Shown: in pieces, positions 9,186-28,682 of the stretch | How positions within the stretch are numbered: position 1 is the first letter of the stretch | Layout of the letters: each line of letters opens with the position of its first letter | From: a virus | Taxonomy: Duplodnaviria; Caudoviricetes | Length of the DNA: 64,000 bases | Virus record (IMG/VR): IMGVR_UViG_3300028832_000114 | Coordinates: 32,001-96,000 of that record | Strand: one strand, 5' to 3' | The notes under the pieces: model-generated | The model's input: the letters and a program-made list of their open reading frames with translations, nothing else | What the model was told of the DNA's origin: nothing | Databases searched by the model: none | Made by a program: the position numbers and the translations under genes

Positions 9186-9202
9186 GAAAGGAGAGTGCGG
9201 CA

Positions 9203-10303
9203 ATGGATGATAAAGAACAATTAGAGCAAATAAAAAATAATTTATCTATTGACCAGATATTTGATTTGCTTATATCTTTAGGTGCGGATCCTGTACTTAA
9301 AGATGATATAATCATGTGCCGTACAATCTGTCATGGCGGTGATAGTCATAAATTATACTATTATGATAACACAAAACTATTCCGCTGTTATACAGAATGT
9401 AGTGATACCTTCGATGTATTTCAACTCGTGGTTAAAGTACAATCGACCGGCGGCCGCACATTCTCATTACCGAAAGCTGTCAACTATATAATTAATTATT
9501 TTAATTTAAGCGTAGAAACTAAAAATTTTCCTGATGATAAGGATAAACTATCTGATTGGCAAATTTTATACAGGTATGGCAAAAATTTAAAAGAAGAGGA
9601 TAGCGAAAGAAAAATTGAGATAAAGTTTTATGATGATAAGATTTTATCATTCTTACCGCGTCCCCGCATTTTACCATGGGAGGCTGAAGGGATTAGTAAG
9701 GAAGTTATGAATTATCATAATATATGTTATAACCCTTCGTCTCAAGCAATAGTAATTCCTCACTATGATGTTGAGGGTAGATTAGTGGGAATCAGAGAAA
9801 GAACTCTTATAAAAGAGAATGAGATCTATGGTAAATATAGACCTATGTATTTGAATAAACAAATGTATAATCACCCGCTAGGATTTAATCTATATAATCT
9901 TAATTATAGTAAAGAAAATATAAAGCAAACTAAAAAAGCAATTATATTTGAAGGTGAAAAAAGTTGTTTATTATTTCCTAGTTATTTTGGACAAGAGAAT
10001 GATATATCTGTGGCTGTATGCGGCAGCTCGTTATCTAGTTATCAAGTTCAACTATTATTAGATTTAGGAATTGAAGAAATGATTATTGCTTTTGATAAAC
10101 AGTTTCAACAACTTGGTGACAAAGAGCATCAAGGTTGGGTTAAAAAATTAAAAGATATTAATAAAAAATATAGTAAATATATAAAAATTAGTTATATTTT
10201 TGACAAAGAAAATCTTTTAGGTTATAAGGATTCTCCTATCGACCGAGGTAAGGAGGTATTCTTAGAATTATTTAATAAAAGATTTAGTTTGGAGGAGGAA
10301 TAA
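9203..10303 (+). CDS. DNA primase
   Basis: N-terminal zinc motif (ICH...CYTEC) and TOPRIM motifs IIFEGEKS and IAFD. Confidence 0.85.
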   Translation: MDDKEQLEQIKNNLSIDQIFDLLISLGADPVLKDDIIMCRTICHGGDSHKLYYYDNTKLFRCYTECSDTFDVFQLVVKVQSTGGRTFSLPKAVNYIINYFNLSVETKNFPDDKDKLSDWQILYRYGKNLKEEDSERKIEIKFYDDKILSFLPRPRILPWEAEGISKEVMNYHNICYNPSSQAIVIPHYDVEGRLVGIRERTLIKENEIYGKYRPMYLNKQMYNHPLGFNLYNLNYSKENIKQTKKAIIFEGEKSCLLFPSYFGQENDISVAVCGSSLSSYQVQLLLDLGIEEMIIAFDKQFQQLGDKEHQGWVKKLKDINKKYSKYIKISYIFDKENLLGYKDSPIDRGKEVFLELFNKRFSLEEE

Positions 10304-10307
10304 AAAT

Positions 10308-10517
10308 ATGAACGATAAACTCGAGTTATGAATAAAAACTTGAGACAACCCTACGTTTACGTTCTTTGGTTGAGTAACCGAGGCGGGACAATATTCCGCT
10401 TTAAGTCAGCTTGATGAAAATCAAGTTAAAGAAGCTATTATTATAGCTCGTGGAGCCAACGACCAAATACGTATGGTTAATTATCGAGACTATGAAAACA
10501 AAGGCAAGGTGAGATAA
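10308..10517 (+). CDS. hypothetical protein, 69 aa (code 4, three TGA)
   Basis: RBS GGAGGAGG; MNDKLELWIKTWDNPTFTFFGW...; exactly fills the primase-recJ gap. Confidence 0.65.
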
Positions 10518-10518
10518 A

Positions 10519-12324
10519 ATGAAATATAAATTAATTAAAGAAGTCGATCCAGCCCTAAGTCCTATTCAGCAAATATTGTTGAATAGGGGTATTAAGTTAA
10601 GTGATATGCATCATTACTTAAATACAACAGACGCAGATATTTTGGACGCGGAGATGCTCGGTTCTGAGAGCATCAAAGCGGCCGCTGCCGCATTAATTTT
10701 AGCGATAAATAATAATTCAAAAACATTAGTATTGGTAGATTGCGATTGCGATGGTTATACATCTGCCGCAATACTTATAAATTACTTATATGATTTATTC
10801 CCTACTTTTGTAACAAATAATTTAAAATATTATTTACACGAAGATAAAACACATGGTTTATCAGATTGTATAGATTATATAGAAAAAAATGATTTTAAAT
10901 TAATTATTATCCCTGATGCTGCAAGTAATGATTATGAGTATCATCACAAACTAAAAGAAGAGGGTCGTACAATTATTATTCTAGACCACCATGAAGCACC
11001 AATGGTATCTAAAGATGCTATTGTGCTTAATAATCAATTATCAAATTATCCAAATAAACAATTATCAGGAGCTGGTGTCGTATGGCAGTTTTGTCGTTAT
11101 TTAGATAAGATACGTGGTGGACATACAGCAGATGAATATATAGATTTAGCCGCATTAGGAAATTGCGGCGACATGATGAGTTTACGCTCAATCGAGACTA
11201 AACATATTATAACCAAGGGTTTCCGCAACGAAAATATAAAGAACCCATTTATATATGGTATGGCTGAAAAGAACGCATACTCATTAGGAAATAAAATAAC
11301 CCCAATAGGTGCAGCATTTTATATAGTTCCTTTTGTTAACTCAATGGTTAGAAGTGGAACTCTTGAAGAAAAAGAAATCTTATTTAAATCAATGCTTAAA
11401 AACGAAGCATTTAAAATGATATTATCTAATAAGCGTGGACATAAATTAGGTGAAGAAGAAAAATTAGTTGACCAAGCGTTAAGAACTGCGACCAATGTAA
11501 AAAGTCGTCAAACAAGAGAACAAGATAAAGGTATGGCTTTAGTAGAAGAGCAGATAGAAAAAAATAATATGATGCAACATAAAGTATTAATTTTCTTATT
11601 AGAACCAGGACAAATTGATCCTAATATTGCGGGATTGATAGCTAATAAAATAATGGCTAAATATCAAAGACCCGTATTAATGCTAACAAAAGTAAAAGTA
11701 TTAAATCAAAATATGATATTAACATCTAATCCACCACAACCTTATTATGATACTTATTACAGGGGTAGTGCGCGTGGATACTCTAAATCAGGAATTGAAA
11801 ATTTTAAAGATATATGTCAAGAAACCGGTTTGGTAGAATACGCAGAAGGACATCAAAATGCTTTTGGTATTAGTATTTTATCATCTTATATTGATAGGTT
11901 TATAGAATTAACAGATGAAGCATTAAAAGATTTACAAAGCGAACCTTTATATTATGTTGATTATATTTTCAAAGGGGTTGATGTTCAACCCAATACAATT
12001 TTAGATATAGCCAATCTAAGTGATATATGGGGACAAGATATGGATGAAAGTTTAATTTGTATTGAAAACTTAAAGGTTGTAAAAGAAAATTTAACTTTGA
12101 TGAGTCCTGATAAAAAGCCAACATTGAAAATAACTTTACCAAATAAGATTAGTTTAATTAAGTTTGGTAGTTCACAAGAAGAATATGATAAATTATTAAC
12201 AGATGGATATATAGAATTAAATGTCGTGGGTAAATGTAATGCAAACGAATGAATGGGAAATATTACACCACAAATACTTATTGAAGATTATGAAGTTATA
12301 GGACAAAGTAAATATAATTTTTAG
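10519..12324 (+). CDS. recJ: RecJ-like DHH ssDNA exonuclease (code 4)
   Basis: DCDCDG, LDHH, GSARG, GHQNAFG; TGA 12250 gives the typical C-terminal NEWMG..TPQILIEDY. Confidence 0.9.
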
Positions 12325-12353
12325 TTGATAAATATTTAAAAATATAATATAAT
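12325..12353 (+). promoter_or_regulatory. sigma-A-type promoter
   Basis: TTGATA-17-TATAAT. Confidence 0.6.
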
Positions 12354-12376
12354 ATAAATGAAAGTGAGGGCAGCAG

Positions 12377-13579
12377 ATGATTCAATTAAACGATAAACAA
12401 CTTGAAGGTTTAAATCTTGCAGTAGCCAGATATAGAGATGGTGAAAAGACTACTATTATATCAGGTTATGCGGGAACTGGAAAGTCAACCTTAGTTAAAT
12501 TTATTATTGCCGCCCTAAATAATGACGGTATTGATCCAGATAAAGATGTTGTATATACATCGTTCACTGGTAAAGCAACTCAAGTATTACAAAAAAAAGG
12601 AAATAAAAATGTTAGTACATTGCACAAACTATTATATGAGTATTTTCCTAGAGCAGATGGCACATTCTTTAGGAAACCAGTATTAGATATACCATATAAA
12701 ATTGTTATTGTAGATGAATGTAGTATGGTGCCTAAAGAATTATTAATGCAACTTGCAAAATATAAAGTTCATATAATTTGTTTAGGAGATCCAGGCCAAT
12801 TGCCGCCAATAAATAAAGATGAAGATAATCATTTACTTGACAATCCACACGTATTTCTAAATGAGATTATGCGTCAAGAAGAACAAAGTGAAATAATAAA
12901 ACTTACTATGGATGTCAGAGCAGGAAAACCTTTAAATCATTTTATTGGAAAAGAAGTTCAAATATTAGATAAAGATGAGCTTACAACAGGTATGTTAATG
13001 TGGGCAGACCAAATTATTTGTTCTACCAATGCAACAAGAATAGCATTAAATAAACAAATGAGGGCTTTATTAGGTCGCTGTGATAATCCTGAAGATGGAG
13101 ATAAAGTAATTTGTCTTCGTAATTATTGAGATATATTAAGCGAAGATAAATCACCACTTGTAAATGGAACAATTGGAACATTAAAAAATAGTTTTGAAAG
13201 TTTCTTTAAATTACCTGGATATATTACAAATTATAGAATATCACAGATACCAACTGTTCTTGCAACTTTTGCATCAGATGATGGTATAACTACATTTAAT
13301 AATTTAACAATGGATAAAAAAATGATTTTAGAGGGTGAACCAACATTAACTTCTAAAGAAAATTTTAAATTAAGTAAAAATAAAAAATATGTAAATAGTA
13401 TTCCATTAAGTTTTACTTATGGATATGCCATTACTTGCCACAAAGCACAAGGTAGTGAATGGGATAATGTACTTGTTATTGAAGAAGGCTTTCCTTTTGA
13501 TAAACAAGAACATATTAAATGATTATATACAGCCGCAACTAGGGCTGCTAAAAAACTAGTTATAATAAGAAAGATATAG
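12377..13579 (+). CDS. RecD/Dda-like SF1B helicase (code 4)
   Basis: GYAGTGKST, VDECSM, GDPGQLPP, HKAQGSEW and K(W)LYTAATRA; TGA at 13127 and 13520. Confidence 0.9.
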
Positions 13580-13591
13580 GAGGAATAATTA

Positions 13592-13882
13592 ATGAATAAT
13601 AAGTATACAGTGCAAGGAGTTATGAATGACAGATGAGTTATTTGGTATAAAGATTTAAAGAAAAAAGGTAATAAAATAGGTGTTTATAAAATAATTGATT
13701 TAAATGATGGCAAAAAGACAGCAAGATTTGCAGTAAGATATAAACCAAGAGAGAATCAAACTCAAGAAGTTTCAGATTCATTAATTATATCTAACTGTAT
13801 TGCAAATTTTTATAAACATTCTTACACAAATCCAAGAGTAAGATCTAGGGGCGGAAGACGCAGTTCATTCGTTTCAGGATAG
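13592..13882 (+). CDS. basic hypothetical protein (code 4)
   Basis: RBS AGGAGG; MNNKYTVQGVMNDRWVIWYK...; one TGA. Confidence 0.65.
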
Positions 13883-13890
13883 GCGGCCGC

Positions 13891-14358
13891 ATGAAACTTA
13901 GGTTATCTTACTTTTATCAAATAAGAAATTTTAAACCTAATATGATACCAATGTCAACTGCAATGTCAGATCCAGCCTGGTATCATGATTTTAAAGACTC
14001 AACTCATATCTTCACAGATAAACGAGGAATATTAAATGGACTTAGGTTACTCCCTATTATAGTTCAAAATGCAAATGGTGAAGTTCACTGTCCATGCGAA
14101 CATAGAGATGCAACTAGATGTCCACTAGCTCATGATTATGAGGCGGCTCTTGAAAAAGTAGACCTCCCTAAATTAATGAAAGGCGTAAAATCATTTTGTG
14201 ATGATTACTGCCAACAAAATAAAATTAAAGAAGAGCCTATTGCAGTATTAATGGTATATGAAGCACCTAATAATCCTTGCAGTGAAAGATATAGTTTATT
14301 AAAATATTTTAATTCACACGGAATTGAATGTAAAGAACTAGACTACCCTATAGAGTAG
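13891..14358 (+). CDS. hypothetical protein (possibly DUF488-like)
   Basis: ORF track; SYF at the N-terminus and a late LMVYE...C.ER pattern. Confidence 0.55.
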   Translation: MKLRLSYFYQIRNFKPNMIPMSTAMSDPAWYHDFKDSTHIFTDKRGILNGLRLLPIIVQNANGEVHCPCEHRDATRCPLAHDYEAALEKVDLPKLMKGVKSFCDDYCQQNKIKEEPIAVLMVYEAPNNPCSERYSLLKYFNSHGIECKELDYPIE

Positions 14359-14363
14359 TCTAT

Positions 14364-14392
14364 TTGATTTTTATTTAATTTTTTAGTATAAT
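14364..14392 (+). promoter_or_regulatory. sigma-A-type promoter upstream of dnaE
   Basis: TTGATT-17-TATAAT. Confidence 0.6.
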
Positions 14393-14424
14393 ATAAATAT
14401 ATAGGTATGAAAGGAAGGGAAGAT

Positions 14425-17400
14425 ATGAGTAATAGATTTGAAGTTCATAGTCATACAATGTATAGTAATTTAAGACTTTTAGATAGTATTAACCGTCCGA
14501 AAGATTTAATTAATAAAGCAATTGAATTAGGATTAGCTGGTATAGCAATCACAGATCATGAGTGTATAAGTTCTCATCCTGAAATAAATTTTTATCAAAC
14601 AGAAGTTCAAAAAGAACATCCTGATTTTAAAATAGCATTAGGAAATGAAATATATTTAACTGACACAAGAGATAGTGGTCAAAGATATTATCACTTTATT
14701 TTAATAGCAAAAAATAAAATAGGTCATCGCGCATTAAGAGAATTATCTTCAAGAGCGTGGATGAATAGTTATTGGAATCGAGGTCTTGAACGTGTTCCAA
14801 CATTAAAAGATGATTTAGAAGAAATATTAAAAAAGTATCCGAATAGTTTAATTGGAACAACAGCATGTTTAGGTGGGGAATTAAGTATTAATACATTAGA
14901 ATTAATAAAATGTGAAAAAACTAATGATAAAGATGGTGCGGCAGTTGCACATAATAATATAGTAAAATTTTTGTTATGGTGCAAAAATGTATTTGGAGAT
15001 AATAATTTTTATATTGAATGTGCTCCTGGTACAAGTCGTGAACAAATCTTAGTTAATAAAAGATTTCCCGCAATTGCAAAAGCATTTGGATTAAAAATGG
15101 TTATTGGAACAGATGCACATTATCTTAAAAAAGAAGATAGATATGTTCATAAAGCATATCTTAATAGTAAGTTTGGAGAGCGTGAAGTAGATGAGTTCTA
15201 TGAATTTGCATATCTTCAAAATAACGAAGAAATAATAGAACATTTAAAAGCATCTGATTTTAGTAATGAATTTATAGATGAAATGTTTCAAAATAGTTAT
15301 GAAATATATGCAAAGATAGAAAATTATAATTTAGCTCATGCGCAAACAATCCCTCATGTTGAAGTAGAAGATTATCCTATTATAGAGATTGAATCAGAAG
15401 AATTTTTAGATAAGTATCCAGTTTTATCTGATATGTTTCAATCAAATGATCAAATAGAAAGATATTGGGTAAACAAATGTTCAAATAAATTAAGAAAATT
15501 GGGTTTAAGAAATGAAACTTATCTAAGTAGATTAGAAGAAGAGGCGGATATTAAAAGAACAATTAGTGAAAAATTAGGAACTAATATGTTTGCATATCCA
15601 GTTACACTTCAACATTATGTAGATTTATTTTGGAATTGTGGAAGTATAGTAGGAGCTGGTCGTGGTTCAAGTTGTTCAGGTTTAAATCATTATTTATTAG
15701 GTATAACTCAACTTGATCCGATACAATGGAATCTTCCATTCTGGAGATATTTAAATAAAGAGCGTGTTGAGTTAGGTGATATAGATTTAGATTTATGTCC
15801 AAGTAAGCGTCCTAAGATTTTAAATGAAATTAAAAAAGAAAGAGGACAAAATTTTAAGGCGGAAATAGATGATTTAAGTAGAAAGAATCTTGGTTGTACA
15901 TTAATAGCAACATTTGGTACAGAGGGTACAAGATCAACAATATTAACTGCATGTCGTGGTTATAGGAATGAAGAGTATCCAGATGGTATAGATGTTGATA
16001 CAGCACAATATTTATCATCATTAATCCCAAGTGAACGTGGGTTCTTATGGCCGCTTAATGATGTTATTAATGGTGATGAAGAAAAAGGTAGAAAGCCAAT
16101 TAAAACATTTATAAATGAAGTAAATATGTTTCCTGGATTATTAGATATAATGTCTGGTATTGAAGGTTTAGTAAATAAAAGAAGTAGTCATGCTTCAGGA
16201 GTTATCTTATTTGATGAAGATCCATATGAGTTTGGTGCATTTATGAGAACTCCAAAAGGAGAAATTATCACAGCGTATGATTTGCATATGTGTGAAGCAT
16301 GTGGTATGACGAAATATGACTTCTTAGTAACAGAAGTTCAAGATAAATTAACAGAAGCAATTAAAATGTTGCAAGATTATGGAGAAATTGAAAGTGATTT
16401 AACATTAAGAGAAGTATATGATAAATATTTTCACCCAAATGTTCTTCCTATTGAAGATAATAAATATTGGAAAGTATTGCAAGATAATAGTGTTTTAAAT
16501 ATCTTTCAGTTTGATAGTGATGTTGGAGGTCAAGCCGCAAAAAAGATTAAGCCAACAAATATAATGGAAATGGCGGATGCAAATGGTTTGATGAGATTAA
16601 TGACTGCGGAAAAAGGTCAAGAAACTCCAATGGAAAAATATATAAGATTTAAGAATAATATAAATTTATGGTATAGAGAAATGGACTCATATGGTCTAAC
16701 AAAAGAAGAACAAAAAGTATTAGAGCCATATTTTAAGAGTTCACATGGTGTTCCTCCAAGCCAAGAGCAGTTAATGAGAATGTTAATGGATGAAAAGATT
16801 TGTAACTTTACTCTTGCGGAAGCGAATGCCGCACGTAAGATAGTTGGTAAGAAACAAATGAATAAGATCCCCGCATTAAGACAACAGGTATTAGATCAAG
16901 CGTCAAGTCCATGTATGGGTAATTATATATGGAAGTGTGGTGTTGGTCCGCAGATGGGATATTCATTTAGTATCATTCACGCGTTAGCATATAGTTTCAT
17001 TGGTTTTCAAACAATGTATATAGCGACAAGATGGAATCCGATATATTGGAACACAGCGTGTTTAATAGTTAATAGCGGAAGTCTTGAAGAAGATAGTGAT
17101 TTTGAAGAAGACGAGGATGGATATATAGTTGAGAAAAAAGAAAAATCAACAGATTATAGTAAAATAGCAAAAGCGTTAGGAGATATAATTAATAAAGGAA
17201 TTAAAGTTAGTTTAGTTGATATAAATAGGTCAGATTATAGTTTTCAACCAGATGTAGATAATAATGAAATATTATTTGGTATGAAAGCATTAAATAATGT
17301 TGGCGGTCCGATTATTGAACAAATAAAAGCAAGTCGTCCTTATGCGGGAATCGCAGATTTTATGGCAAAGTGTCCGTTGAATAAGAGTGCAATGATTAGT

Positions 17401-18378: not shown

Positions 18379-18386
18379 GAGAATAT

Positions 18387-18740
18387 ATGAAAAAAATAAT
18401 TGAACATGGTTTTATGAGTTATATGGAAACTACCTGTCCATACTGCGGTTGTAAGTTTTCATTTGAATGGGAAGATGTAATTAGCCCAACATGAGGTCCT
18501 ACTTGAAGATATGATAATACAAATATTACAGTTAGTGGTTGTTGTATTACTACAGGAACGGCTCAAAATTATGAAATTTTCTGCCCTGAATGCAAAAGAA
18601 AATTTCCTATTTTAAACTGGTCTTTCTCATATCCTAGAGGTAATTGTCCTTTTACTTATAGTGGAGAATGGAAAAATACATCTGTAACAAAATGTGACAC
18701 AGAATGTACGTGTCATAAGTGTTCAGACAAAAATGATTAA
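18387..18740 (+). CDS. Cys-rich zinc-ribbon protein (code 4)
   Basis: CPYCGC...CPEC...CxxxCxCxxC; two TGA. Confidence 0.65.
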
Positions 18741-18814
18741 TCATATTAAGCAAAAATTAAAATTGTCATAGAGGTTAAAATCCTTGAAATAATTTAAATA
18801 CTAAGGAGGAGACT

Positions 18815-21070
18815 ATGAAAGTCATTAAACGTGATGGTCGCTTGGTTGTTTTTGACCCAGCGAAAATCGAGAGAGCTATTCTCGCAGCATTCGAGGATGT
18901 AGATGGTGAAATATCTGACTACGCTAAAGATAAAGCTGAAAATATAGCAAGTTATATTGAAGGATATTATTTAGATGTTGATGAAACACCTAATATTGAA
19001 GATATCCAAGACCTAGTAGAAAAAGGTCTAATGGCAACAAAAAGAAAAGATGTTGCAAAAGCCTATATTTTATATAGGGAAGAAAGAAATAAAATTAGAA
19101 ATTCCAATAGCCAATTAATGAAGGCTATTAAGGAAAAGATTGAAGCATCAGATGTTCAAAATCAAAATGCTAATATTGATGAATATTCTTTCGGCGGCCG
19201 TATGGGTGAAGCCCGCAGTGAGTTAATGAAAGATTATGCATTAAATTATTTAGTATCTGATATGGCAAGAGAAAATCATTTAAATAATGAAATTTATATT
19301 CATGATTTAGATGCTTATGCTGTTGGTATGCATAACTGTTTAACCATTCCTTTTGATAAACTATTAGCAGAAGGATTTAACACAAGACAAACAGATGTTA
19401 GACCAGCTCGTTCAATTAACACAGCATTTCAATTAGTTGCAGTTTTATTTCAATTACAATCACTTCAACAATTTGGAGGAGTTAGCGCAAGTCATTTAGA
19501 TTGAACTATGGTTCCATATGTTCGTATGTCATTTAGAAAACATTGGATTAATGGTGTAAAATATATTGAAGATAAAGTTAATGAAATTCCTGTTCAATAT
19601 TTACCAGAAGAAACATCTATTGAAGATGAAGATTATCAAATGTTTCCAAGAGCATATCAATATGCAATGGATATGACAACAAAAGAACTTATGCAAGCTG
19701 TTCAAGGTATGTATCATAATCTAAATACACTACAATCTAGAAGTGGAAATCAATTACCTTTTACTTCTATTAACTATGGTACTTGTACTTTACCTGAAGG
19801 TAGAATGGTTACAAAAGCATTATTAGAAGGCTCTATTGAAGGTGTAGGAAAAGTTAGAAAAACTCCTATATTCCCATGCGGTATATTCCAATGTATGAAA
19901 GGTGTTAATCGTAAACCTGGAGACCCTAACTATGATTTATTTAAGTTAGCATTAAAATCAACAGCTCAAAGATTATATCCTAATTATGTTAATATAGATT
20001 GGTCTACTAACGCGGGATATGATATTAACGATCCTAAAACATATGTTTCAACTATGGGTTGTAGAACTTATAATGGTGCGGATATTAATGCTGAACCTGG
20101 CACAAATCCTCAAACTAAGGACGGCCGCGGCAATATATGTCCAGTTACTATTGTAATGCCAACATTAGCTATGGAAGCTAAAGAAGAAGCTGAAAGATTT
20201 AGAGAGGGAGCAGATGTATATTTTGATAAAATTGAATTATTTATGACGCTATTAGATAAAAAAATCCATGAAGCTAGAGATATGTTAGTTGAAAGATATA
20301 AATGGATTATTAGTCAAAATCCTGAATCTGCAAAATTTATGTATGAAAATGGATTAATGCTTGGCTATGATGGTAAGACAGTTGAAAGTGCTATGAAACA
20401 TGGAACTCTTGTAATAGGTCAAATTGGTATGGCTGAAACATTACAAATTTTAATTGGTTGCGACCATACAGAACCTAGAGGAATGGAATTAGCAAAAAGA
20501 ATTGAACAATTATTTAAAGATAGATGTGCTGAATTTAAAAAAGAATTACACTTAAATATTGGTGTTTATTATACACCTGCTGAAAATATGTGTTATACAT
20601 CTATGAAAAAATTTAGAAAAAAATATGGAATTATTCCTAATGTAAGTGATAGAGATTATTTCACAAATAGTATTCATGTTCCTGTATGGAAAGAAATGAG
20701 TCCATTTGAAAAAATTGATATTGAAAGTCAATTAACTGGATATAGTAATGCAGGATGTATTACTTATGTAGAATTAGAGGGCGGAGTTAAAAATAATTTA
20801 GACGCTCTTGAAACTATTGTTAACTATGCTATGGATAAAGATATTCCATATTTCGCAATAAATGTTCCAAATGATATATGTTTAGATTGTGGCTATACTG
20901 ATGAATTCAATGATAAATGTCCAATGTGCGGAAGCACGCATATTCAACAACTTAGACGTGTTACTGGATATTTAACAGGAGATTATAAAACAGCATTTAA
21001 TAAAGGTAAACAACAAGAAACTGAACAAAGATATAAACATAGTAAAAAATTGGAGAACTGGCATGATTAG
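18815..21070 (+). CDS. nrdD: anaerobic (class III) ribonucleotide reductase (code 4)
   Basis: ATP cone (VIKRDG), IYIHDLD, MGCRT, TPAE, CxxC-CxxC and the RRVTGY glycyl-radical motif; joined across TGA 19502. Confidence 0.95.
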
Positions 21071-21560
21071 AATTGCTGGGTTAAATGGAAATGATTTTGT
21101 CAATGGAGAAGGTGTAAGCGTTAGCTTATTCCTTCAAGGTTGTCATTTTCATTGTAAAGGATGTCATAATCCTGAAACTTGGAATCCTGAAGGCGGAATT
21201 GAAGTTGATGAAGGAGATTTAATTCAACAAATTTTAACATTAATAAATGCTAATAATATTACTCGTAATCTTAGTATCTTAGGTGGAGAACCACTTGATA
21301 CCGAACAAAAAAGATATTTTTTAAGAGAATTAATAATACGAGTAAGATATTATTATCCAGAAATTAAAATTGTGCTTTGGACAGGATATAAATATAATGA
21401 TATAAAAGATAAAGAAGATTTTAAATATATATTAGAAAATATAGATTATTTGATTGAAGGCCCTTTTATATTAGAGGAACGCGACATAACGCTTAAATGG
21501 CGCGGCAGCCGCAATCAAAATATAAGAAATATGAAAACAGGAGAAAACATCAATGATTAA
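21063..21560 (+). CDS. nrdG: anaerobic RNR activating enzyme (radical SAM)
   Basis: CHFHCKGC, LGGEP, RGSRNQ. Confidence 0.92.
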   Translation: MIRIAGLNGNDFVNGEGVSVSLFLQGCHFHCKGCHNPETWNPEGGIEVDEGDLIQQILTLINANNITRNLSILGGEPLDTEQKRYFLRELIIRVRYYYPEIKIVLWTGYKYNDIKDKEDFKYILENIDYLIEGPFILEERDITLKWRGSRNQNIRNMKTGENIND

Positions 21561-21714
21561 TTTTTTAAAAATATTTTTTCCAGCTCTTATGGTAACTGGA
21601 GCAGTTGGTAGCTGCGTTGTAAATCTTGTTACAGATAAATCTAATTGGCCTGTAACATTGCAATGGTTTGGAGCTGCATTGCTATATACAGCATTATTAT
21701 TTAGAAACAAATAA
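21553..21714 (+). CDS. small two-TM membrane protein, 53 aa
   Basis: MINFLKIFFPALMVTGAVG...WFGAALLYTALLF; RBS AGGAG. Confidence 0.6.
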   Translation: MINFLKIFFPALMVTGAVGSCVVNLVTDKSNWPVTLQWFGAALLYTALLFRNK

Positions 21715-21719
21715 AAGGT

Positions 21720-21765
21720 AAGGAGGTAAGTTATAATTTATTAAAATAGCTTACCTCCTTTTTCT
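21720..21765 (+). terminator. intrinsic terminator
   Basis: AAGGAGGTAAGTTAT/ATAGCTTACCTCCTT stem followed by a T-run. Confidence 0.75.
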
Positions 21766-21784
21766 TATTTTTCAGGGGGTAATC

Positions 21785-22717
21785 ATGGAAAGAAAAGAAA
21801 TATGTGATAAGATTTATTACATGACTAAAAAAAGAAAATCTTTTAAAACCGTTTGTCAAGAATTAAATTTAAAAGATTATGAAGTTATAGGTTTAGTAAC
21901 TATAATGGCACAAGAGGGATATAATATTGATTTTGTAGATGGAGAGCTTATTATTAGAAAAGTTCCTAAACAAAATCAAGATGTTTATGAAATTCCATAT
22001 AATTTAGAACATTTAAAATTATTATTAATTAGTGATACTCATTTATGTTCTAAATATGATAGATTAGATATTTTAAAATATTTATATTCAAAAGCAGAAG
22101 ATAAAGGTATTCAACATATATTACACTCAGGTGATTTTACTGATGGTCGTTCAAATAGACCAGAACATGTATATGAATTAAAAGAGCATTCTTATGAAGG
22201 ACAAGTTGATTATTGTGTTGATAGATATCCTCAATTTAATGGAAAAACATATATAATTTCAGGTAATCATGATGACTGGTGGTATAAATCTGCAGGAAGT
22301 GAAATTGTAAAAACAATAGCTAAACAAAGAGAAGATATGGTTTATTTAGGTCCTGATGTTGCAGATTTAAAAATTGGTAAATTAAAAATTAGATTATTTC
22401 ATGGAATGGGCGGCGGCGCATATGCTAAATCTTATAAATTACAAAAATATTTAGATAGCATTCCAACCGCAGAAAGACCTGATATTTTACAAACAGGACA
22501 TACTCATCAATCATTCTATATGAAACAAGATGGTACACATTGTTTTCAAACCAGCTGTTTAGAAGATCAAACGCCATATTGTAGAAGTATGGGTATGGGA
22601 AATGATAAATCATGTTGATGAGTTGATGTAGACTTTGATGATAAGGGAAATATTTATAGTATTAAACCTGAATTAGAAACATTTGGAGACAAGAAAATTT
22701 ATACTAAAAGGAAGTAG
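21785..22717 (+). CDS. calcineurin-like metallophosphoesterase with N-terminal extension (code 4)
   Basis: SDTH, HSGDFTDG, GNHD, FHG, GHTH; tandem TGA TGA at 22616-22621 read as WW. Confidence 0.85.
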
Positions 22718-22722
22718 TTTTT

Positions 22723-23142
22723 ATGAAAGATGTTACACAATGAATGATAAACAGCTATGGGTTAGATGATAAGGGCTATGATTTTATGGGTTATACTTTT
22801 ACAGATCAAAGACAATTAAGCTTTCATCATCTCATCGTTCCTAAAAAAGATTGCCCTAAATTAAGATTGGGCAATGGATACTTTTTATGAAATGGAGCTA
22901 TTTTAAAACAACTAACCTCACATAATTATTTACACGTAATAGAAAGAATAGATAGAAATACTTTTTTAAAAATTACACAAATATTAATAGCAGAAAATCA
23001 AACAGGAGAAATAAATATAGAATTATTAAAACAAATTAGATTTTTATTAGAACATTTTGAAAAAGAGCATTATGATGAAACTGATAAAAAAGGCAAAATT
23101 TTAATTAAATCGAAATATATAACAGAAAGGATCCCGCTATAA
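22723..23142 (+). CDS. hypothetical protein with an HNH-like His pattern (code 4)
   Basis: SFHHLIVP...GNG...NGAIL...SHNYLH; two TGA. Confidence 0.6.
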
Positions 23143-23424
23143 ATGACAATAGAAGAAAAAATACAAAAACATCAAGAATTATTGAATATCCTACATGAAG
23201 TTTATATTGCAAAAAATCATGATTATGGGGATAGTGTTCATGATACTTATAATAAATATGGAATAGTTTCTTTTTTGGTAAGACTTGAAGATAAATTAAA
23301 TAGAGCTAGAACAATTAGTTCTAAATCTCAAATGGTAGAAGATGAAAAATTGAAAGACACTTTATTAGATATGGCAAACTATGCTATTTTAGCAATTTTA
23401 GAGTTGGAGGATAATAATGGATAA
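23143..23424 (+). CDS. nucleotide modification associated domain 1 (DUF1599-like) protein
   Basis: KNHDYGDS...RLEDKLNR...[12 protein letters not shown]. Confidence 0.8.
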
Positions 23425-24646
23425 AAAAATAAAAGAAGCATTAGAAAAAGAAATTATAAGACAACAACAAAATATTGAATTAATTGCGAGTGAAAATTAT
23501 GTATCTAATGATATATTAAAATTACAAGGAAGTATATTTACAAATAAATATGCAGAAGGATATCCCTCTAAAAGATATTATGGGGGATGTGAAAATGTTG
23601 ATACTGTTGAACAATTAGCTATTGATTATGTATGTAAATTATTTAATGTAAAATATGCAAATGTTCAACCTCATAGTGGTAGCAGTGCTAATATGGCGGT
23701 ATATAGAGCATTATTACAACCTGGTGATACTGTATTAGGCATGAATTTAAGTTCCGGTGGACATTTAACACACGGATATAAATTAAATTTTAGTGGAAAA
23801 GATTATAATATTATTAGTTATGATGTTGATTATAATGGATATATTAATTATGATAATATTGAAGAATTAGCACTACAATATAAACCTAAAATGATTATAG
23901 CAGGCGCTTCCGCATATCCAAGAAAAATAGATTTTGCAAGATTTAAAGATATTGCAGATAAATGTGGTGCATATTTAATGGTTGATATGGCACACATAGC
24001 TGGATTAGTTGCGGCAGGTTTTCATCAAAATCCTTGTGATTATGCAGATGTAGTAACTTCCACTACACATAAAACACTACGTGGACCTCGTGGAGGAATT
24101 ATATTAACAAATAATAGTGAAATTAGTAAAATAATTAATAAAACAATATTCCCAGGTATTCAAGGTGGACCTTTAGAGCATGTAATCGCCGCAAAAGCTC
24201 AGTGTTTTTATGAGGCACTACAATCCGATTTTAAAGAATATCAAAAACAAGTATTAAAAAATATTACAGCAATGGCTGAAGAGTTTCGTTCACTTGGGGT
24301 TTCTTTAGTAAGTGATGGCACTGATAATCATTTAATTTTAGTTGATGTATTTCACTCTTTTGGTTTAACAGGGGCGGAAGCAGAAATAATTTTAGATAAA
24401 ATTCATATTACAGTTAATAAAAACACTATTCCAGGAGAAACATTAAAAGCAACTGAGGCAAGTGGTATTAGAATTGGTAGTCCTGCTATGACAACTAAAG
24501 GACTTAAAGAAGAAGATTTTAAAACAATAGCAGATATTATTTATATGGCTTTATCTTTAAGAACTGATAAAAATGCATTAGAAAGACAAAAAGAAAGGGT
24601 ATTAGAAATTACAAATAAAATTTATTATGAGCAAACTAATTTTTAG
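23417..24646 (+). CDS. glyA: serine hydroxymethyltransferase
   Basis: [32 protein letters not shown] and the PLP lysine motif [13 protein letters not shown]. Confidence 0.97.
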
Positions 24647-25202
24647 ATATAGTGCTATGAATAGTGGCAAAACAACCAATTTGTTACAAGTAGCACATAA
24701 TTATGAAGAACGCGGGTTTATGGTTAAAATAGCTAAACCTGAAATAGATACAAAGGCGGATGACCGTGTTTCTAGCCGCATTGGACTAGAACGAAAGGTA
24801 GACTACCTAATACCGCCGCAAGGAGAAATATCAATAGATCTAAGAACTAATGTGCTATTGATTGACGAAGCACAATTTCTAAATAAAGAACAAATAGATC
24901 AATTATATGAAATATCAAAATTATATAATATTTTAATTATTTGCTATGGTTTAAGAACGGATTTCCGCATGCAAGGATTTCCTGGGGCTACTCGTCTACT
25001 AGAAATAGCTGATGAAATTGAAGAATTAAAAACTATTTGCTCTTGTGGCAAAAAGGCTACATTTAATCTTCGTCTAATTAATGGTTTTCCAACATTTGAA
25101 GGAGACCAAGTGTCTATTGATAATCAAGAAGAAATAAAATATGATAGTATATGCGGGGATTGTTATTTAAAATTAAAACAAGGAGCTAAAAATGGATTAT
25201 AA
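24627..25202 (+). CDS. tdk: thymidine kinase
   Basis: [23 protein letters not shown], zinc-binding cysteines. Confidence 0.95.
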
Positions 25203-25815
25203 AATTGAAACTAAAATTACTGATTTTGATATTAATTGAAAAAAAATAAAATCAGCATGTATGACTACTATATCAAAAGAAGCTGGAGATAAAGAACCAT
25301 CAAGTGAATGAAAAAGAAAATTATTATTATGTGAGCATAGTCCTATTCGTCGCGGTACTGTAAGTTGGAAGTGAGATGCTATTCCCTATGCAATTTCAAC
25401 TCATTTTGTAAGACATCATGAAGGTGTAGAAAAATGGGTAGGCACTCAAAGAGCTGATAGAACAGAAGTAAAAGATAGAAGTGAAAGAAGCCAAATGAAT
25501 CCAGTCCCTATGGAGATGGAAGCTAATATTCAAGCATTAATTAATATATCATATAAAAGACTTTGTACTTGTGCAGATCCACTTACTAGAAAATATTGGG
25601 AAAATACTTTATTAGCAATTAAGGAATATGATGAAGATATATTCTGGGCTTGTGTTCCTCAATGTATTAGATGTGGAGGATGCCCTGAATATAAAACTTG
25701 TGGATATTATGAACAATTTGCAAAAAATCTAACAATGGAAGAACAAATAGATATTCATAAAAGATATGATAAATATAATGAAGAAAGAGCTAAAAGACTA
25801 ACTTTGAAAAAATAA
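25192..25815 (+). CDS. thyX: flavin-dependent thymidylate synthase-like protein (code 4)
   Basis: EHSPIR, STHFVRHH, QRADR, KRLC; the N-terminal half is hidden by three TGA codons. Confidence 0.75.
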
Positions 25816-25832
25816 AAAAAATATATTATAAT
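25804..25832 (+). promoter_or_regulatory. sigma-A-type promoter
   Basis: TTGAAA-17-TATAAT. Confidence 0.55.
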
Positions 25833-25866
25833 ATTTATATATAAAATAAGAAAAGAGGTAAAAAAT

Positions 25867-26352
25867 ATGATAAGACCAATTTTAACATATCCTGCGGATA
25901 AAGAAATATTAACACAAAAAAGTGTTGAAGTAACAGAATTTAATGATGAAATAAAAGAAATTATAACCGATTTAATTGATACATTAAAAAATTCAACTGG
26001 TGCAGGCATTTCCGCAATTCAAATTGGAAAACCTTATCGTATTTGTGTTATAAATTGGTGTGATATTCATGTTTTAGTTAACCCAAAAATAACTAGAACA
26101 AGAGGAACTCATTCAATGAGGGAAGGCTGTTTATCAGTTCCTGGATTATTTGTTGATCATGAACGAGCTCAAAAAGTATGGATCACTGCACTAAACGAAA
26201 ATGGTGAAGAATATGAATATGCTGAGGGCGGCAATGGTAGCTATATTGCTCAACATGAATTAGACCATTTTGAAGGTACTTGTTCATTATTCCAAGCATA
26301 TGATGAAATAGAAAAAAATATAGGGGTTGAAAAGAAAAATGAAAATAATTAA
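25867..26352 (+). CDS. def: peptide deformylase
   Basis: GAGISAIQIG, EGCLS, QHELDH. Confidence 0.93.
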   Translation: MIRPILTYPADKEILTQKSVEVTEFNDEIKEIITDLIDTLKNSTGAGISAIQIGKPYRICVINWCDIHVLVNPKITRTRGTHSMREGCLSVPGLFVDHERAQKVWITALNENGEEYEYAEGGNGSYIAQHELDHFEGTCSLFQAYDEIEKNIGVEKKNENN

Positions 26353-26842
26353 AAGATTTTTATTAAATAGAAAATTAAAAAAAGAATATAAAAGAAAAAT
26401 ATTAGAACATAAAACAAAATTAATTCAAATTTTTAGAGAATTATTACAATGAAAAGATTGTGATTGGATAACTAAAGACTTGGATGTAATGAATAATTTA
26501 TGGTATAGAATATTAGAACATGATGATAGTCTATATGATAAAATAGAAATGAAAATATTTAAAAATCCTGATGGGAATTATTCTCAAGAAGAATATGACG
26601 CCGCAGTTCAACATCACATAAATAATAACGACCATCATTGGGAGAATAGAGTAGATGACCAAATTTTAACCTTACAAACTAAGCTAGCCTGTGTTGAAAA
26701 TCTACTAGATTGAATGTCTTATAAAACAGCTCCTTATGAAGAATGATTTACATTCATTGAAAATACAAAACTACCAGAAATACAAAAAAACTTCATGAAA
26801 GAATTTATGTGAGTAATAATAAATAATAAAATGGAGGTATAA
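26339..26842 (+). CDS. HD-like protein (DUF5662-like; code 4)
   Basis: EHK...EHDDS...EE..A..HH..NNDHHWE...E..LDW; four TGA. Confidence 0.6.
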
Positions 26843-26844
26843 TT

Positions 26845-27021
26845 ATGTTATGGTTTTGGATATTAGTTGGAATAGTAGTAGTATTAACAATAATATTTGT
26901 AATCTGCGCTATTATAACTGGTAAAAGTATGGAAGCATATTACACAGGACTAGATGACGAAGAGAGGTATTTAAATGATATTCCAGAAAAACAAGAAGAA
27001 AAAATTAAAGAAGAAGAATAG
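26845..27021 (+). CDS. small single-TM protein
   Basis: MLWFWILVGIVVVLTIIFVICAII plus an acidic tail; RBS GGAGG. Confidence 0.6.
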   Translation: MLWFWILVGIVVVLTIIFVICAIITGKSMEAYYTGLDDEERYLNDIPEKQEEKIKEEE

Positions 27022-27427
27022 CACTGTTGAAATGGGAACTTCTCTTTACGAAGTAAATAAAGGGCTTGTAGAAAAAAATGTTCCTGATTTAACAGATGAA
27101 GAAATGCAAAATAAAAAAACATTAATAATTGATTTTATAAATAATACAAGTAATCAATATTATATGTTATTATGCAATGATAAAAAAGATTATACAATAT
27201 TTAGAAGAGAAACGAATGAAAATAAAGATTTCTTAGACAATCTTGAAACTCCAGACCGCGATAGATTATGGAATGTATTAATTGATGAATGTCTTCCTAA
27301 CCGCGGCCGCACAAAATCAATAGAATTAACTGAAAATCAAGATGCTGTTGAGATATGGATCTCAATTGAGAGCGAAAGTTATTGCTATATGTTTTTTCCA
27401 TATGATGCAGCTATCATTGAATGTTAG
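26975..27427 (+). CDS. hypothetical protein
   Basis: ORF track; start uncertain. Confidence 0.65.
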   Translation: MIFQKNKKKKLKKKNSTVEMGTSLYEVNKGLVEKNVPDLTDEEMQNKKTLIIDFINNTSNQYYMLLCNDKKDYTIFRRETNENKDFLDNLETPDRDRLWNVLIDECLPNRGRTKSIELTENQDAVEIWISIESESYCYMFFPYDAAIIEC

Positions 27428-27436
27428 GAGGATAAA

Positions 27437-27703
27437 ATGACAATTATTGCAAATGTAAAAGGTTTTACTTTAGCACATCCAGTTATGGTTGTTGATAATG
27501 ATAAAGTCGTTTATGCAACAAAAGCATCTTTAAAAGATATGCCTGAATTACTTTCTCATTTTGCTCAAACTTATAATTGTAATCATATTACTTTTGTAGG
27601 TAATCAAAAATTTGCTGAGAAAATGGCAAATCAAACTAAAGATATTTTTAAAGCTAAATATAGTAAAGAAACTGAATTAGAAATTGAATACATTACTAAA
27701 TAA
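27437..27703 (+). CDS. hypothetical protein
   Basis: ORF track; RBS AGGAGG. Confidence 0.7.
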   Translation: MTIIANVKGFTLAHPVMVVDNDKVVYATKASLKDMPELLSHFAQTYNCNHITFVGNQKFAEKMANQTKDIFKAKYSKETELEIEYITK

Positions 27704-27719
27704 TAGTAATGTTTTTTTG

Positions 27720-27748
27720 TTGAAAAAAATAAAAAAATAGAGTATAAT
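27720..27748 (+). promoter_or_regulatory. sigma-A-type promoter heading the dut/glycosyltransferase run
   Basis: TTGAAA-17-TATAAT. Confidence 0.6.
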
Positions 27749-27780
27749 AAAGTATAAAGGAAAGAAAAGGAGATAAAATT

Positions 27781-28032
27781 ATGAAATATTTATTAGAAAC
27801 AACTGAATCTTATAGAGTTAGTACTGAAGAAGAAGTAACTCAATTAATAGAAAATGCAAAAAAAGATAATCATTATATATTAAAAAAACACACTTCACAA
27901 ATTAAAGAGCGTAAACAAAAAGGTGAGGTTGTTGATATGTGGTATAAAGTAACCTTAACAAAATATTTTACAAGTGAAAAAGAACCTGAAGGAACAACAG
28001 AAATTGTTTATAATGAGGGGAGCGCATTTTAA
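27781..28032 (+). CDS. hypothetical protein
   Basis: ORF track; RBS AAGGAG. Confidence 0.7.
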   Translation: MKYLLETTESYRVSTEEEVTQLIENAKKDNHYILKKHTSQIKERKQKGEVVDMWYKVTLTKYFTSEKEPEGTTEIVYNEGSAF

Positions 28033-28034
28033 TT

Positions 28035-28469: not shown

Positions 28470-28471
28470 TA

Positions 28472-28674
28472 TGTTTGCAGCTCTAATGGGATTGCTTACA
28501 GCCCAAAACAATCTTAGAATGACTCAAGCAAGATTAATAACTCATCATATACCAATTAATAATAATGATATTGAAAAAGAACAAAAAGAAAAAGAAGAAT
28601 ATAAACCAAAGCATGAAGAAGAATTTTATAGACCTAAACATGCTAGTGAAATAGATATGTCAATATCAATTTAG
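28472..28674 (+). CDS. hypothetical protein
   Basis: MFAALMGLL...; contains a short repeat (YKPKH/YRPKH). Confidence 0.45.
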
Positions 28675-28682
28675 GAGGAAAA

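Follow-up and report, generated by a model that had tools for sequence, protein, structure and literature searches.

Background

Why should an AT-rich phage genome hold on to a short GC-rich word? The phage considered here, which comes from the gut or rumen and reads TGA as tryptophan, keeps the 4-bp word GCGG/CCGC in both orientations at 4-5 times the expected number, at the cost of an unusual choice of codons and a slight shift in dipeptide usage in its AT-rich genome. Phages are known to lose short words through the avoidance of restriction and other defences; to our knowledge, there are few cases of a phage gaining and keeping a word, and these have so far concerned the host Chi octamer in one orientation. 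A sequence-only reading of a 64-kb window of the phage (the whole stretch of 64,000 nucleotides analysed here) had drawn attention to the word and to the NotI sites built from it, proposing either a selected cis-motif (for protein binding, packaging, a Chi-like function or modification) or a mutational or protection signature.

Methods

Genes were called with TGA as Trp, and expected word counts in coding DNA were obtained by shuffling synonymous codons within each gene. Synonymous substitutions were polarised by three-taxon parsimony in seven disjoint trios of relatives at 83-89% identity. The search for methyltransferases was extended to five larger relatives, of which one is 100% complete.

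Results and discussion

Size and distribution of the excess

With base frequencies of 0.150 for G and 0.1435 for C, the plus strand of the window carries 236 copies of GCGG and CCGC taken together, against 59.5 expected at order 0 and 48.7 at order 1. Nearly a third of all CpG in the window (236 of 789, 30%) sits in the word, while 4.4% is expected, which bears out the earlier impression that it recurs on both strands throughout and takes a disproportionate share of CpG. The complete 104,464-bp phage genome holds 392 sites (96-101 expected), divided between 193 GCGG and 199 CCGC on the plus strand. All four genome modules are enriched, as is the non-coding, non-tRNA DNA, where 48 sites compare with 13.6 (M1) or 8.0 (M0) expected, i.e. 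3.5 times M1; the tRNA genes are rich in sites (22 in 2.3 kb). GCGG prefers any base but A at its 5' flank and any but T at its 3' flank (B-GCGG-V). Neither polarity along the genome nor terminal clustering was found in the phage or in the complete relative G407, each quarter of which shows the excess equally in the two orientations. The excess is a property at the DNA level: non-coding DNA shows it as strongly as the rest, and it is present in either orientation and in every module. The strand and spacing distribution, which the sequence-only reading had proposed to examine, thus gives equal orientations without end polarity, and lends no support to a role in packaging or as a classical Chi site.

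The five NotI sites (GCGGCCGC) noted earlier were recovered at exactly 9450, 10678, 13883, 17446 and 27303 (Table 1), and the expectation of about 0.01 sites given for them is close to the order-0 value of ~0.015 in 64 kb. There are 10 such sites in the complete genome. They exceed the codon-shuffled expectation (8 vs 0.59) but lie only about 8-fold above order 3, i.e. once the 4-mer excess is allowed for. Most fall within runs of Ala, Gly or Arg codons, at places where two junctions that each form the motif stand side by side. Because of such adjoining junctions and the 4-mer excess, NotI is regarded as a by-product of the 4-mer bias and not as a site in its own right.

Table 1. Positions in the 64-kb window of the word, of its paired and NotI forms and of two genes considered in relation to it
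Feature	Position	Strand	Remarks
Dispersed field of 236 GCGG/CCGC sites (~3.7 per kb)	1..64000	both strands	coding and non-coding DNA
89-aa ORF, called wHTH in the sequence-only reading	3605..3874	+	no Pfam or PHROG match; in just one locus, but outside the fetched flanks of most relatives
DnaG-type primase, candidate reader	9203..10303	+	phrog_47, E=6e-40; in 10/10 full-flank relatives
NotI site (GCGG abutting CCGC)	9450..9457		within primase gene
NotI site with a further CCGC straight after it (GCGGCCGCTGCCGC)	10678..10685		within DHH/RecJ-like gene
NotI site	13883..13890		8-bp gap directly before ATG of ORF 13891-14358
GCGGCGGCCGC: NotI site and GCGG-N3-CCGC pair	17443..17453		encodes Ala-Ala-Ala-Ala in DnaE
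GCGG-N3-CCGC pair (GCGGCAGCCGC)	21502..21512		NrdG-like gene
NotI site (CCGCGGCCGC), overlapping SacII-type CCGCGG	27303..27310		within ORF 26975-27427
GCGG-N3-CCGC pair (GCGGTTGCCGC)	60602..60612		late gene of 2880 aa

Codon and amino acid usage

The codon-usage control, set beforehand as the test that could refute the enrichment, leaves it in place: CCGC occurs 139 times against 44.2 in the shuffled genes (z=17.3) and GCGG 194 times against 105.6 (z=10.7), an excess of about +90 in each orientation, and the two are the top 4-mers of all 256 by this score. Total CpG is unchanged by the same measure (1224 vs 1213), and among the 16 NCGN contexts only GCGG and CCGC are enriched. Synonymous choice does contribute as had been supposed, with motif-making codons preferred at the matching junctions: Arg is encoded by CGC in 40% vs 3% of cases after a C-ending codon (OR 20), Gly by GGC in 35% vs 8% before GGN, Ala by GCC in 23% vs 5% before GCN and Pro by CCG in 23% vs 4% before C. 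Control CpG-forming codon junctions show no effect. Dipeptides which permit the motif are mildly over-used (z 3.4-5.9).

It might be argued that the excess is a side-effect of amino acid content, codon usage, tRNA genes, local clumping of G+C or the better survival of CpG between G/C neighbours in AT-rich DNA, as many sites lie at Ala, Gly and Arg codon junctions, with close pairs in Ala runs, and the tRNA genes are rich in them. This explanation is very improbable and was rejected, as the excess outlasts the codon shuffle and extends to non-coding, non-tRNA DNA, while the other all-G/C 4-mers (GGCC, GCGC, CCGG and CGCG) are not enriched in the codon-shuffle comparison. Moreover, the observed/expected ratio is about 1 both in a phage of similar G+C content and CpG depletion and in distant AT-rich Bacilli, and among ten all-G/C word classes the rate at which this word is gained by substitution is the highest (2.6 times the rest, p=9e-7).

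Related phages and candidate hosts

All 36 related phage loci carry the excess, at 3-6 times the expected number, and in the pooled clade (652 kb) the word is the top 4-mer (2372 vs 1172, z=48), and words of greater length contribute nothing beyond the 4-mer. In an Enterococcus phage, which is distantly related and whose replication module is syntenic, there is no excess (0.72-0.99 times expected). The candidate hosts, which are the genomes with the nearest SHMT and may not include the true host, have 0.7-1.9 sites per kb, compared with 3.75 per kb in the phage. These genomes over-represent AGCGG/CCGCT 2.3-2.7 times. In the phage, AGCGG is the only flank context that is not enriched (17 vs 29.3 in CDS), and the hexamer AGCGGT stands at 1.0 times expected. 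A word of the phage type at comparable strength was seen in no sampled genome. The bias, which the sequence-only reading had suggested looking for in related phages and in the host, is therefore present in all 36 related loci and, in its phage form, absent from the sampled candidate hosts; the phage excess is not inherited from any sampled host, and a host-imposed cause is excluded just for the genomes sampled.

Turnover of sites and substitution bias

Individual sites turn over rapidly. Relatives have 16 of 23 sites in common at 93% amino acid identity and 1-7 at 80-85%, and in 25 DnaE orthologues the sites are spread over 102 alignment positions. Individual positions are not conserved and are therefore not fixed binding sites, which removes protein binding at fixed sites from the proposed roles.

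Among the polarised synonymous substitutions, W>S transitions which create the word occur at a rate of 0.071, compared with 0.026 for those creating other CpG (p=3e-7), and the corresponding transversions at 0.0205 vs 0.0073 (2.8 times, p=0.015; 8/390, a small count). In the reverse direction, S>W transitions destroying the word occur at 0.085 vs 0.165 (p=7e-4), and transversions at 0.015 vs 0.051 for changes with no effect on CpG (0.30 times, p=0.009; 5/330, likewise small). Word-creating changes are thus fixed about 2.6-2.8 times as often as matched controls and word-destroying changes about 0.3-0.7 times as often, and the size of the excess follows from this ratio of gain to loss. In a raw comparison, CpG within GCGG is not lost at a significantly lower rate than CpG in other contexts, and what is raised is the rate of gain; of the 46 gains inferred in that comparison, parallel losses would by our own estimate explain only about 2. 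Since transitions and transversions are both biased into the word and against leaving it, the bias is one of fixation and acts on the word itself.

The mutational or protection signature offered as an alternative by the sequence-only reading is largely rejected by these data, as the gain is raised and the loss not significantly slowed in the raw comparison, transversions are affected equally and the one-transition precursors are not depleted (GTGG 164 vs 163.2; CCAC 67 vs 65.5). GCAG and CTGC are mildly low (0.87 and 0.93). The proposal of a selected cis-motif stands in its general form, on the grounds of the DNA-level excess and the fixation bias, but none of the features examined speaks for its particular roles of packaging, classical Chi function or modification, or for fixed binding sites. 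We therefore favour, with a probability of roughly 0.55, the view that GCGG/CCGC is a selected, dispersed and orientation-independent word which acts through its density and is held at 4-5 times the expected number across this TGA-recoded clade, a general claim that names no particular reader. The fixation bias would then represent weak natural selection on each site, with a scaled strength of about 1-1.5 by our own calculation from the rate ratios.

The substitution data fit selection and word-directed biased gene conversion or repair alike. In the latter case, mismatch processing by the host or the phage would favour the GCGG-bearing strand, and the word would accumulate without function in a broader analogue of Dcm/Vsr very-short-patch (VSP) repair, which reportedly shapes oligonucleotide frequencies such as that of CCWGG in E. 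coli (Bhagwat and McClelland 1992; Merkl et al. 1992). There too, the whole genome has too many copies, on either strand, of a short word that contains C, at positions that are not conserved, through a bias in allele survival. Biased conversion likewise predicts a raised gain with a lowered loss and a density that is kept while positions change, and the phage brings recombination machinery of its own, so that frequent heteroduplexes may be presumed. However, unlike in Dcm/Vsr repair, the A>C and T>G transversion paths are preferred just as strongly as the changes typical of VSP repair (T>C and A>G), and the T-containing precursors are not depleted; a deamination, protection or VSP-repair signature was rejected. 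Besides, neither a C5 or N4 methyltransferase nor Vsr was found in the phage genome, nor a C5 or N4 methyltransferase in the five larger relatives (PF00145 in neither the phage nor the relatives, PF03852 not in the phage, PF01555 not in the relatives), and the phage-type bias is missing from the sampled candidate hosts. A C5 methyltransferase is present in four of the five candidate hosts, and the host may encode a cognate enzyme for VSP-type repair. Biased repair in the wider sense is accordingly considered an unlikely competitor of selection on the word.

Restriction and modification

The enriched words are identical to the recognition sequences of the AciI (CCGC) and NotI restriction-modification systems, and AciI-type duplex 4-mers are typical methyltransferase targets. 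Restriction targets are normally lost by phages, whereas GCGG/CCGC is enriched 4-5 times and therefore does not behave as one; avoidance of a restriction target was rejected, the word being over-represented and not under-represented. On the other hand, several 4-bp palindromes (GATC, GTAC, ACGT, TCGA and CATG) are depleted in the phage, which suggests that its DNA is exposed to ordinary restriction. The word could instead be the target of a sequence-specific modification of C or G (a methyl group or a bulkier adduct), introduced by an unrecognised enzyme, with fitness scaling with the number of modified sites. A symmetric, orientation-free excess suits recognition of a duplex, and the phage carries a large glycosyltransferase cassette together with SHMT. 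Such an origin is nevertheless improbable: searches of the clade for known families yielded no C5 methylase, N4/N6 methylase, TGT/DpdA or ThyA-like hydroxymethylase, SHMT is sporadic (3 of 37 loci) and the bias universal, the palindromes are depleted, and enrichment is not normal for modification targets.

Comparison with Chi sites

A further explanation relates the word to the host AddAB/RecBCD-class enzyme. If GCGG acted as its Chi, accumulation would attenuate nuclease attack on phage ends and turn it into recombination, by analogy with the phages LLS, P1 and MD8. AGCGG and GAAGCGG, which are Chi sites known from Firmicutes, both have GCGG as their 3' core, a Chi of 4-5 nt could plausibly occur as often as the word does here (one site per ~530 nt per strand), and the candidate hosts have an AddB-like gene in addition to their over-represented AGCGG/CCGCT. 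The phage further resembles the Chi-rich phages (E. coli LLS and P1 and P. aeruginosa MD8; Zheng et al. 2025, PMC12315714; Bobay et al. 2013, as cited there) in carrying a short word far above the prediction from composition and codon usage, Chi accumulation beyond codon usage being known in phages (PMC12315714). However, those phages carry the exact host 8-mer, almost always in one orientation (20 of 23 sites in LLS, 32 of 32 in MD8; PMC12315714) and near one genome end, whereas the present word is a 4-mer in both orientations without polarity or terminal clustering. The Chi-rich lambdoid phages lack Rec modules; this phage encodes recombination-type functions of its own (a Sak4-like AAA_24 protein, a DHH/RecJ-like exonuclease, an SF1 Dda-like helicase and Metallophos nucleases). 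In addition, the form that the candidate hosts over-represent, AGCGG, is the one which the phage does not enrich, and none of the sampled genomes shows the phage-type word at comparable strength. A borrowed host Chi is, on balance, doubtful.

Candidate readers of a selected word

If the word is selected, some protein probably reads it, and selection would be expected to arise where a protein which tracks along or samples the DNA must meet the word often and not at fixed places. A Chi-like control word for a host helicase-nuclease comes first among the candidates, as a tentative choice. Second, and slightly less probable, is a use of the word by the conserved replisome of the phage itself, for example as a place where its DnaG-type primase starts primers; on a level with this stands the third candidate, an unrecognised protein which modifies or coats DNA and has the word as its target. 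Primase recognition words (GTC-containing pentamers for T7 gp4, trinucleotides for bacterial DnaG) are similarly short, are needed often on any lagging-strand template, are used to an extent that depends on their flanks, and matter more by their density than by where they lie; the phage encodes a DnaG-type primase that is conserved across the clade. We are not aware of any primase word for which enrichment in its own genome has been reported, and an AT-rich specificity seems a simpler solution for a reader than a GC-rich word in an AT-rich genome.

A more specific proposal, put forward tentatively, is that GCGG/CCGC represents an undescribed kind of phage 'frequent word', weakly selected in both orientations in stop-codon-recoded gut and rumen phages, whose own conserved DnaE-type replisome or recombination machinery must meet it every few hundred bases. 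It would be a phage-autonomous counterpart of Chi rather than a borrowed host signal, and could serve in primer initiation, in the control of a helicase or nuclease, or in telling phage DNA from site-poor host DNA. A reader protein, if it exists, would offer a new handle on replication or DNA protection in uncultured recoded phages.

The bias is strong and clade-specific enough to be used as a practical marker for metagenome fragments of this phage group. A 3.6-kb contig binned as a Bacteroidales genome stands out by its GCGG/CCGC bias.

Size of the excess and codon controls

The tetranucleotide GCGG/CCGC (hereafter the word) occurs 236 times in the window against an expectation of 49-60 and holds 30% of the 789 CpG dinucleotides present, where 4.4% would be expected; the five NotI sites, in which GCGG abuts CCGC, compare with an expectation of ~0.015. 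These counts agree with the sequence-only reading, which had located the same five NotI sites and proposed an over-representation of the word, a disproportionate share of CpG and its frequent construction through synonymous codon choices. In the whole genome, 392 occurrences are observed against ~100 expected, together with 10 NotI sites.

TGA is a Trp codon in this phage, the coding fraction being 0.745 under code 11 and 0.888 with TGA read as Trp, with much longer ORFs (up to 2,881 aa), and every coding-based test was run on gene calls made with code 4. The excess, which the sequence-only reading would have abandoned as an effect of amino acid and codon usage had it vanished under such a control, persists in a within-gene shuffle of synonymous codons. 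On the sense strand, CCGC is found 139 times against 44.2 expected (z=17.3) and GCGG 194 times against 105.6 (z=10.7), an absolute excess of about 90 per orientation. The two are the top deviants among the 256 tetranucleotides and the sole enriched contexts among the sixteen of the form NCGN; GGCC, GCGC, CCGG and CGCG show no enrichment, and total CpG is the same as in the shuffled sequences. Synonymous choices do build the word: CGC makes up 40% of the Arg codons that follow a codon ending in C and 3% of the others, GGC is used in 35% before GGN versus 8%, GCC in 23% before GCN versus 5% and CCG in 23% before C versus 4%, with no effect at control codon junctions forming other CpG contexts. 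Non-coding, non-tRNA DNA carries the same excess (48 sites against 13.6 expected), which excludes codon-pair effects at the level of translation as the cause and, together with the codon shuffle, rules out a codon or amino acid artefact.

Distribution among related phages

The same bias, which the sequence-only reading had suggested looking for in related phages, was found in 36 of the 36 related loci (DnaE 64-93% identical), at 3-6 times the order-1 expectation. The relative rated as 100% complete (G407, 131.6 kb) carries 512 sites against 105.5 expected, with the excess present in both orientations and in every quarter of the genome. This genome (loci L146-L152) is classed as having direct terminal repeats, yet its ends overlap exactly over just 71 bp, which suggests an artefact of circular or permuted assembly rather than true fixed ends. 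An Enterococcus phage with the same replication gene order, similar G+C content (31.7%) and similar CpG depletion shows no bias (o/e 0.72-0.99, rank 38); the bias is therefore not inherent in DnaE-type replication modules. A 3.6-kb contig binned as Paludibacteraceae (L041), whose SHMT is 74% identical to that of the phage, shows the phage-type bias, with the word in 46% of its CpG and an order-1 o/e of 7.8. This contig probably derives from a phage of the clade and owes its place in a Bacteroidales MAG to mis-binning.

Anatomy and placement of the word

In 652 kb pooled from the clade, a maximal-order Markov model ranks the word clearly first among 4-mers (2,372 occurrences against 1,172 expected, z=48), and extending it to 5-7 nt brings no further signal. 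Its flanks modulate it, a 5' A and a 3' T being disfavoured: TGCGGC and GGCGGC stand at 12-14 times the composition expectation and AGCGGT at 1.0 times. In the same pool, CTTA/TAAG and TAATTA are strongly depleted and GAAG/CTTC is enriched.

All modules of the genome are enriched in the word. No strand or end polarity was seen along the genome, and no even spacing or periodicity was detected, the spacing per strand being near random (CV 1.03-1.26). Sites are not associated with gene starts or stops; the few that fall between a ribosome-binding site and the ATG are the one exception, and their number is too small to account for a genome-wide bias. Several GCGG in the window lie between a Shine-Dalgarno-like GGAGG/GGAGAG and the start codon, for example in AGGAGGTGCGGAAATG and GGAGAGTGCGGCAATG.

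The word is clustered at very short range. In 759 kb, GCGGCGG (70), CCGCGG (68), GCGG-N3-CCGC (80), NotI (43) and GCGG-N4-CCGC (31) all exceed the 2.5-5 occurrences expected by chance. These clusters lie mostly in stretches rich in Ala, Gly and Arg, where adjoining codon junctions can each hold the word. The mirror arrangement CCGC-N1-GCGG is almost absent because AGCGG is disfavoured. The pairs forming GCGG-N0/3-CCGC are real (43 and 80 in the pooled sequence against 2.5 by chance), but a separate palindromic element was rejected, since they follow from the adjoining of word-making codon junctions in Ala/Gly-rich stretches and from the disfavouring of AGCGG. The NotI sites and the spaced palindrome are thus read as by-products of the 4-mer bias.

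Turnover and substitution bias

Among 25 codon-aligned DnaE orthologues, the number of sites per gene ranges from 6 to 25 where composition alone would give ~4 (our own calculation), and 102 distinct alignment positions hold the word in at least one orthologue. At 93% amino acid identity 16 of 23 sites are shared, and at 80-85% only 1-7 are. Such fast turnover rules out positionally conserved binding sites and suggests an equilibrium of gain and loss.

A position-wise test of gains against a genome-wide baseline is confounded by codon position, and a synonymous-site analysis was used instead. Here parsimony gave the direction of lineage-specific substitutions within seven disjoint trios (relatives 83-89% identical), and the counts cover synonymous third-position changes with unchanged flanks. 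Transitions from A/T to G/C that create the word occur at 0.071 per opportunity, compared with 0.026 where another CpG is created (2.75 times, p=3e-7) and 0.041 where CpG is unaffected; the corresponding transversions occur at 0.0205 versus 0.0073 (2.8 times, p=0.015). In the reverse direction, transitions destroying the word occur at 0.085 versus 0.165 (0.52 times, p=7e-4) and transversions at 0.015 versus 0.036 and, for changes that leave CpG unaffected, 0.051 (0.30 times this value, p=0.009). The ratio of gain to loss relative to other CpG contexts is ~5, in line with the observed excess. By our estimate, parallel losses misread as gains could explain just ~2 of the 46 gains inferred when the test was first run.

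Since every route into the word is favoured and every route out of it disfavoured, for transitions and transversions alike, the pattern is that of a fixation bias acting on the word, not of a mutational signature. It rules out a flank preference of a CpG methylase as well as the classical very-short-patch mechanism acting on T:G, which the undepleted GTGG/CCAC also contradicts. Protection from deamination, one form of the protection signature offered from the sequence alone, is rejected, as gains are raised and losses are not merely lowered. A generic effect of G/C-rich neighbours is ruled out by comparison with other all-G/C tetranucleotides, whose gain is exceeded 2.6 times by that of the word (p=9e-7), the highest of ten word classes. 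From the rate ratios, we calculate a scaled selection coefficient of ~1-1.5 per site. Word-directed biased conversion, the main rival to selection, predicts the same substitution footprint.

Modification genes and restriction

No genes for PF00145 (cytosine-C5) or PF01555 (N4/N6) methyltransferases, TGT/DpdA or ThyA-like hydroxymethylases were found in the larger relatives searched, the complete one included. PF00145, TGT/DpdA and ThyA-like genes were also not found in the record itself, the sole genome searched for Vsr, which was likewise not found there. The palindromes GATC, GTAC, ACGT, TCGA and CATG stand at ~0.4-0.7 of the codon-shuffle expectation in the window and the clade, a depletion consistent with avoidance of restriction, and the phage DNA therefore appears open to ordinary restriction.

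Candidate hosts

The phage SHMT shares 70-75% identity with its homologues in uncultured gut and rumen MAGs of Bacilli/'Tenericutes' (0.9-1.4 Mb, 24-28% G+C), considered here as candidate hosts. The gene is present in just 3 of the 37 loci of the clade and is therefore a recently acquired accessory gene and a weak host marker. These MAGs carry 0-3 NotI sites each and the word at 0.7-0.9 per kb, against 3.75 per kb in the phage. Their modest excess in the codon shuffle sits in AGCGG and CCGCT (2.7 and 2.3 times; z 11.7 and 7.6), with no enrichment of TGCGG, GGCGG or CCGCA, the opposite of the phage. The lower density and the AGCGG-type excess argue against mimicry of the host. More distant Bacilli stand at ~1.1-1.5 times expectation, and no bias is seen over 120 kb each in G676 and G678, two MAGs whose flanks had looked phage-like in small samples. 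Of 301 genomes of the class screened with GCGGNNNCCGCA, just two exceeded the control, both of 40% G+C, in one of which (G603) the excess is dominated by AGCGG; no small AT-rich genome with the word density of the phage was found among the 301. Spacer-grade DNA matches gave no convincing host among 401 genomes of the candidate order. As far as the sampled genomes go, the bias is particular to the phages of this clade.

Five of the candidate host MAGs (G001-G005; loci L117-L136) carry a shortened AddB-like gene of ~760-790 aa. By analogy with B. subtilis, AGCGG may be the Chi site of these small gut Bacilli. Some of the five have almost no GCGC or ACGT.

Putative reader of the word and comparison with Chi

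Composition, codon usage, host mimicry and the known mutational or repair signatures fail to explain the clade-wide excess, which is surprising for phage genome biology; a literature search found no described GCGG excess in phages. The best description of the phenomenon is a dispersed DNA word under selection, with a putative reader, a protein that would recognise it. The selected cis-motif of the sequence-only reading is retained in this form and is given up as a set of fixed binding sites. Such a protein would need frequent encounters with the word rather than encounters at set places, and many weakly selected, interchangeable sites would maintain its density.

Among described phenomena, the nearest is that of phages LLS, P1 and MD8, which accumulate Chi (PMC12315714). 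Chi sites described for Firmicutes include AGCGG and GAAGCGG, the GCGG core of which is contained in the word, and the candidate hosts both carry the AddB-like gene and over-represent AGCGG, consistent with a Chi-like reading. However, Chi-rich phages carry the exact Chi of the host, 87-100% in one orientation and clustered near one end, and are without recombination genes (PMC12315714), whereas this phage shows no polarity, has recombination genes of its own and is not enriched in AGCGG, and thus lacks their defining features. The word may still have a Chi-like role toward a host with a different Chi, in a permuted genome with ends anywhere. Two other candidates for the reader are as compatible with the data as this role: the DnaG-type primase conserved in the clade, whose initiation words would have to occur on either strand, and an unrecognised modifying or coating protein.

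Gene content and tRNA genes

The record, of which the window covers positions 32,001-96,000, spans 104,464 bp with 29.7% G+C and an estimated completeness of 70%. The replication and nucleotide-metabolism arm encodes a gyrase fragment, NAD-ligase, a Sak4-like AAA_24 protein, a DnaB-like helicase and the DnaG-type primase, as well as a DHH/RecJ-like exonuclease, an SF1 helicase, a DnaE-type polymerase, NrdD/NrdG, SHMT, peptide deformylase and dUTPase. The helicase of DnaB type spans window 7644-9185. Clade-core proteins of unknown function are encoded at window 5071-6006, 7136-7657, 13891-14358, 26975-27427 and 27781-28032, and a further ORF lies at 3605-3874. The phage polymerase shares 39% identity with its counterparts in SPbeta-like Bacillus phages and in 130-140-kb Enterococcus phages, and the replication gene order is common to the phage and the latter. 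The GIY-YIG protein was detected in just three related loci, the gene lying partly outside the fetched flanks.

Features of the phage genome and their coordinates
Feature	Coordinates	Strand	Remarks
Replication and nucleotide-metabolism arm	window	+	
Late arm	window	-	
308-aa protein, C-terminal GIY-YIG domain	window 3939-4865		matches homing-endonuclease PHROGs
DnaG-type primase	window 9203-10303		candidate reader
SHMT	window 23417-24646		
GCGG before start codon	window 7130-7135		
GCGG before start codon	window 9197-9200		
GCGG before start codon	window 13883-13890		
24 tRNA genes and tmRNA (ARAGORN)	record 11396-22007		locus L137/L138, outside the window

In-frame TGA codons number 185 against 216 TGG; they are enriched in the late arm and in glycosyltransferase genes and almost absent from the core replication genes. 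In the MAGs taken as candidate hosts, the genetic code is the standard one. Within the tRNA cluster, a tRNA with anticodon UCA (called SeC) adjoins tRNA-Trp(CCA) and is likely a UGA suppressor. A tRNA with anticodon CUA (called Pyl) is also encoded in the record, yet 41 ORFs still end in TAG.
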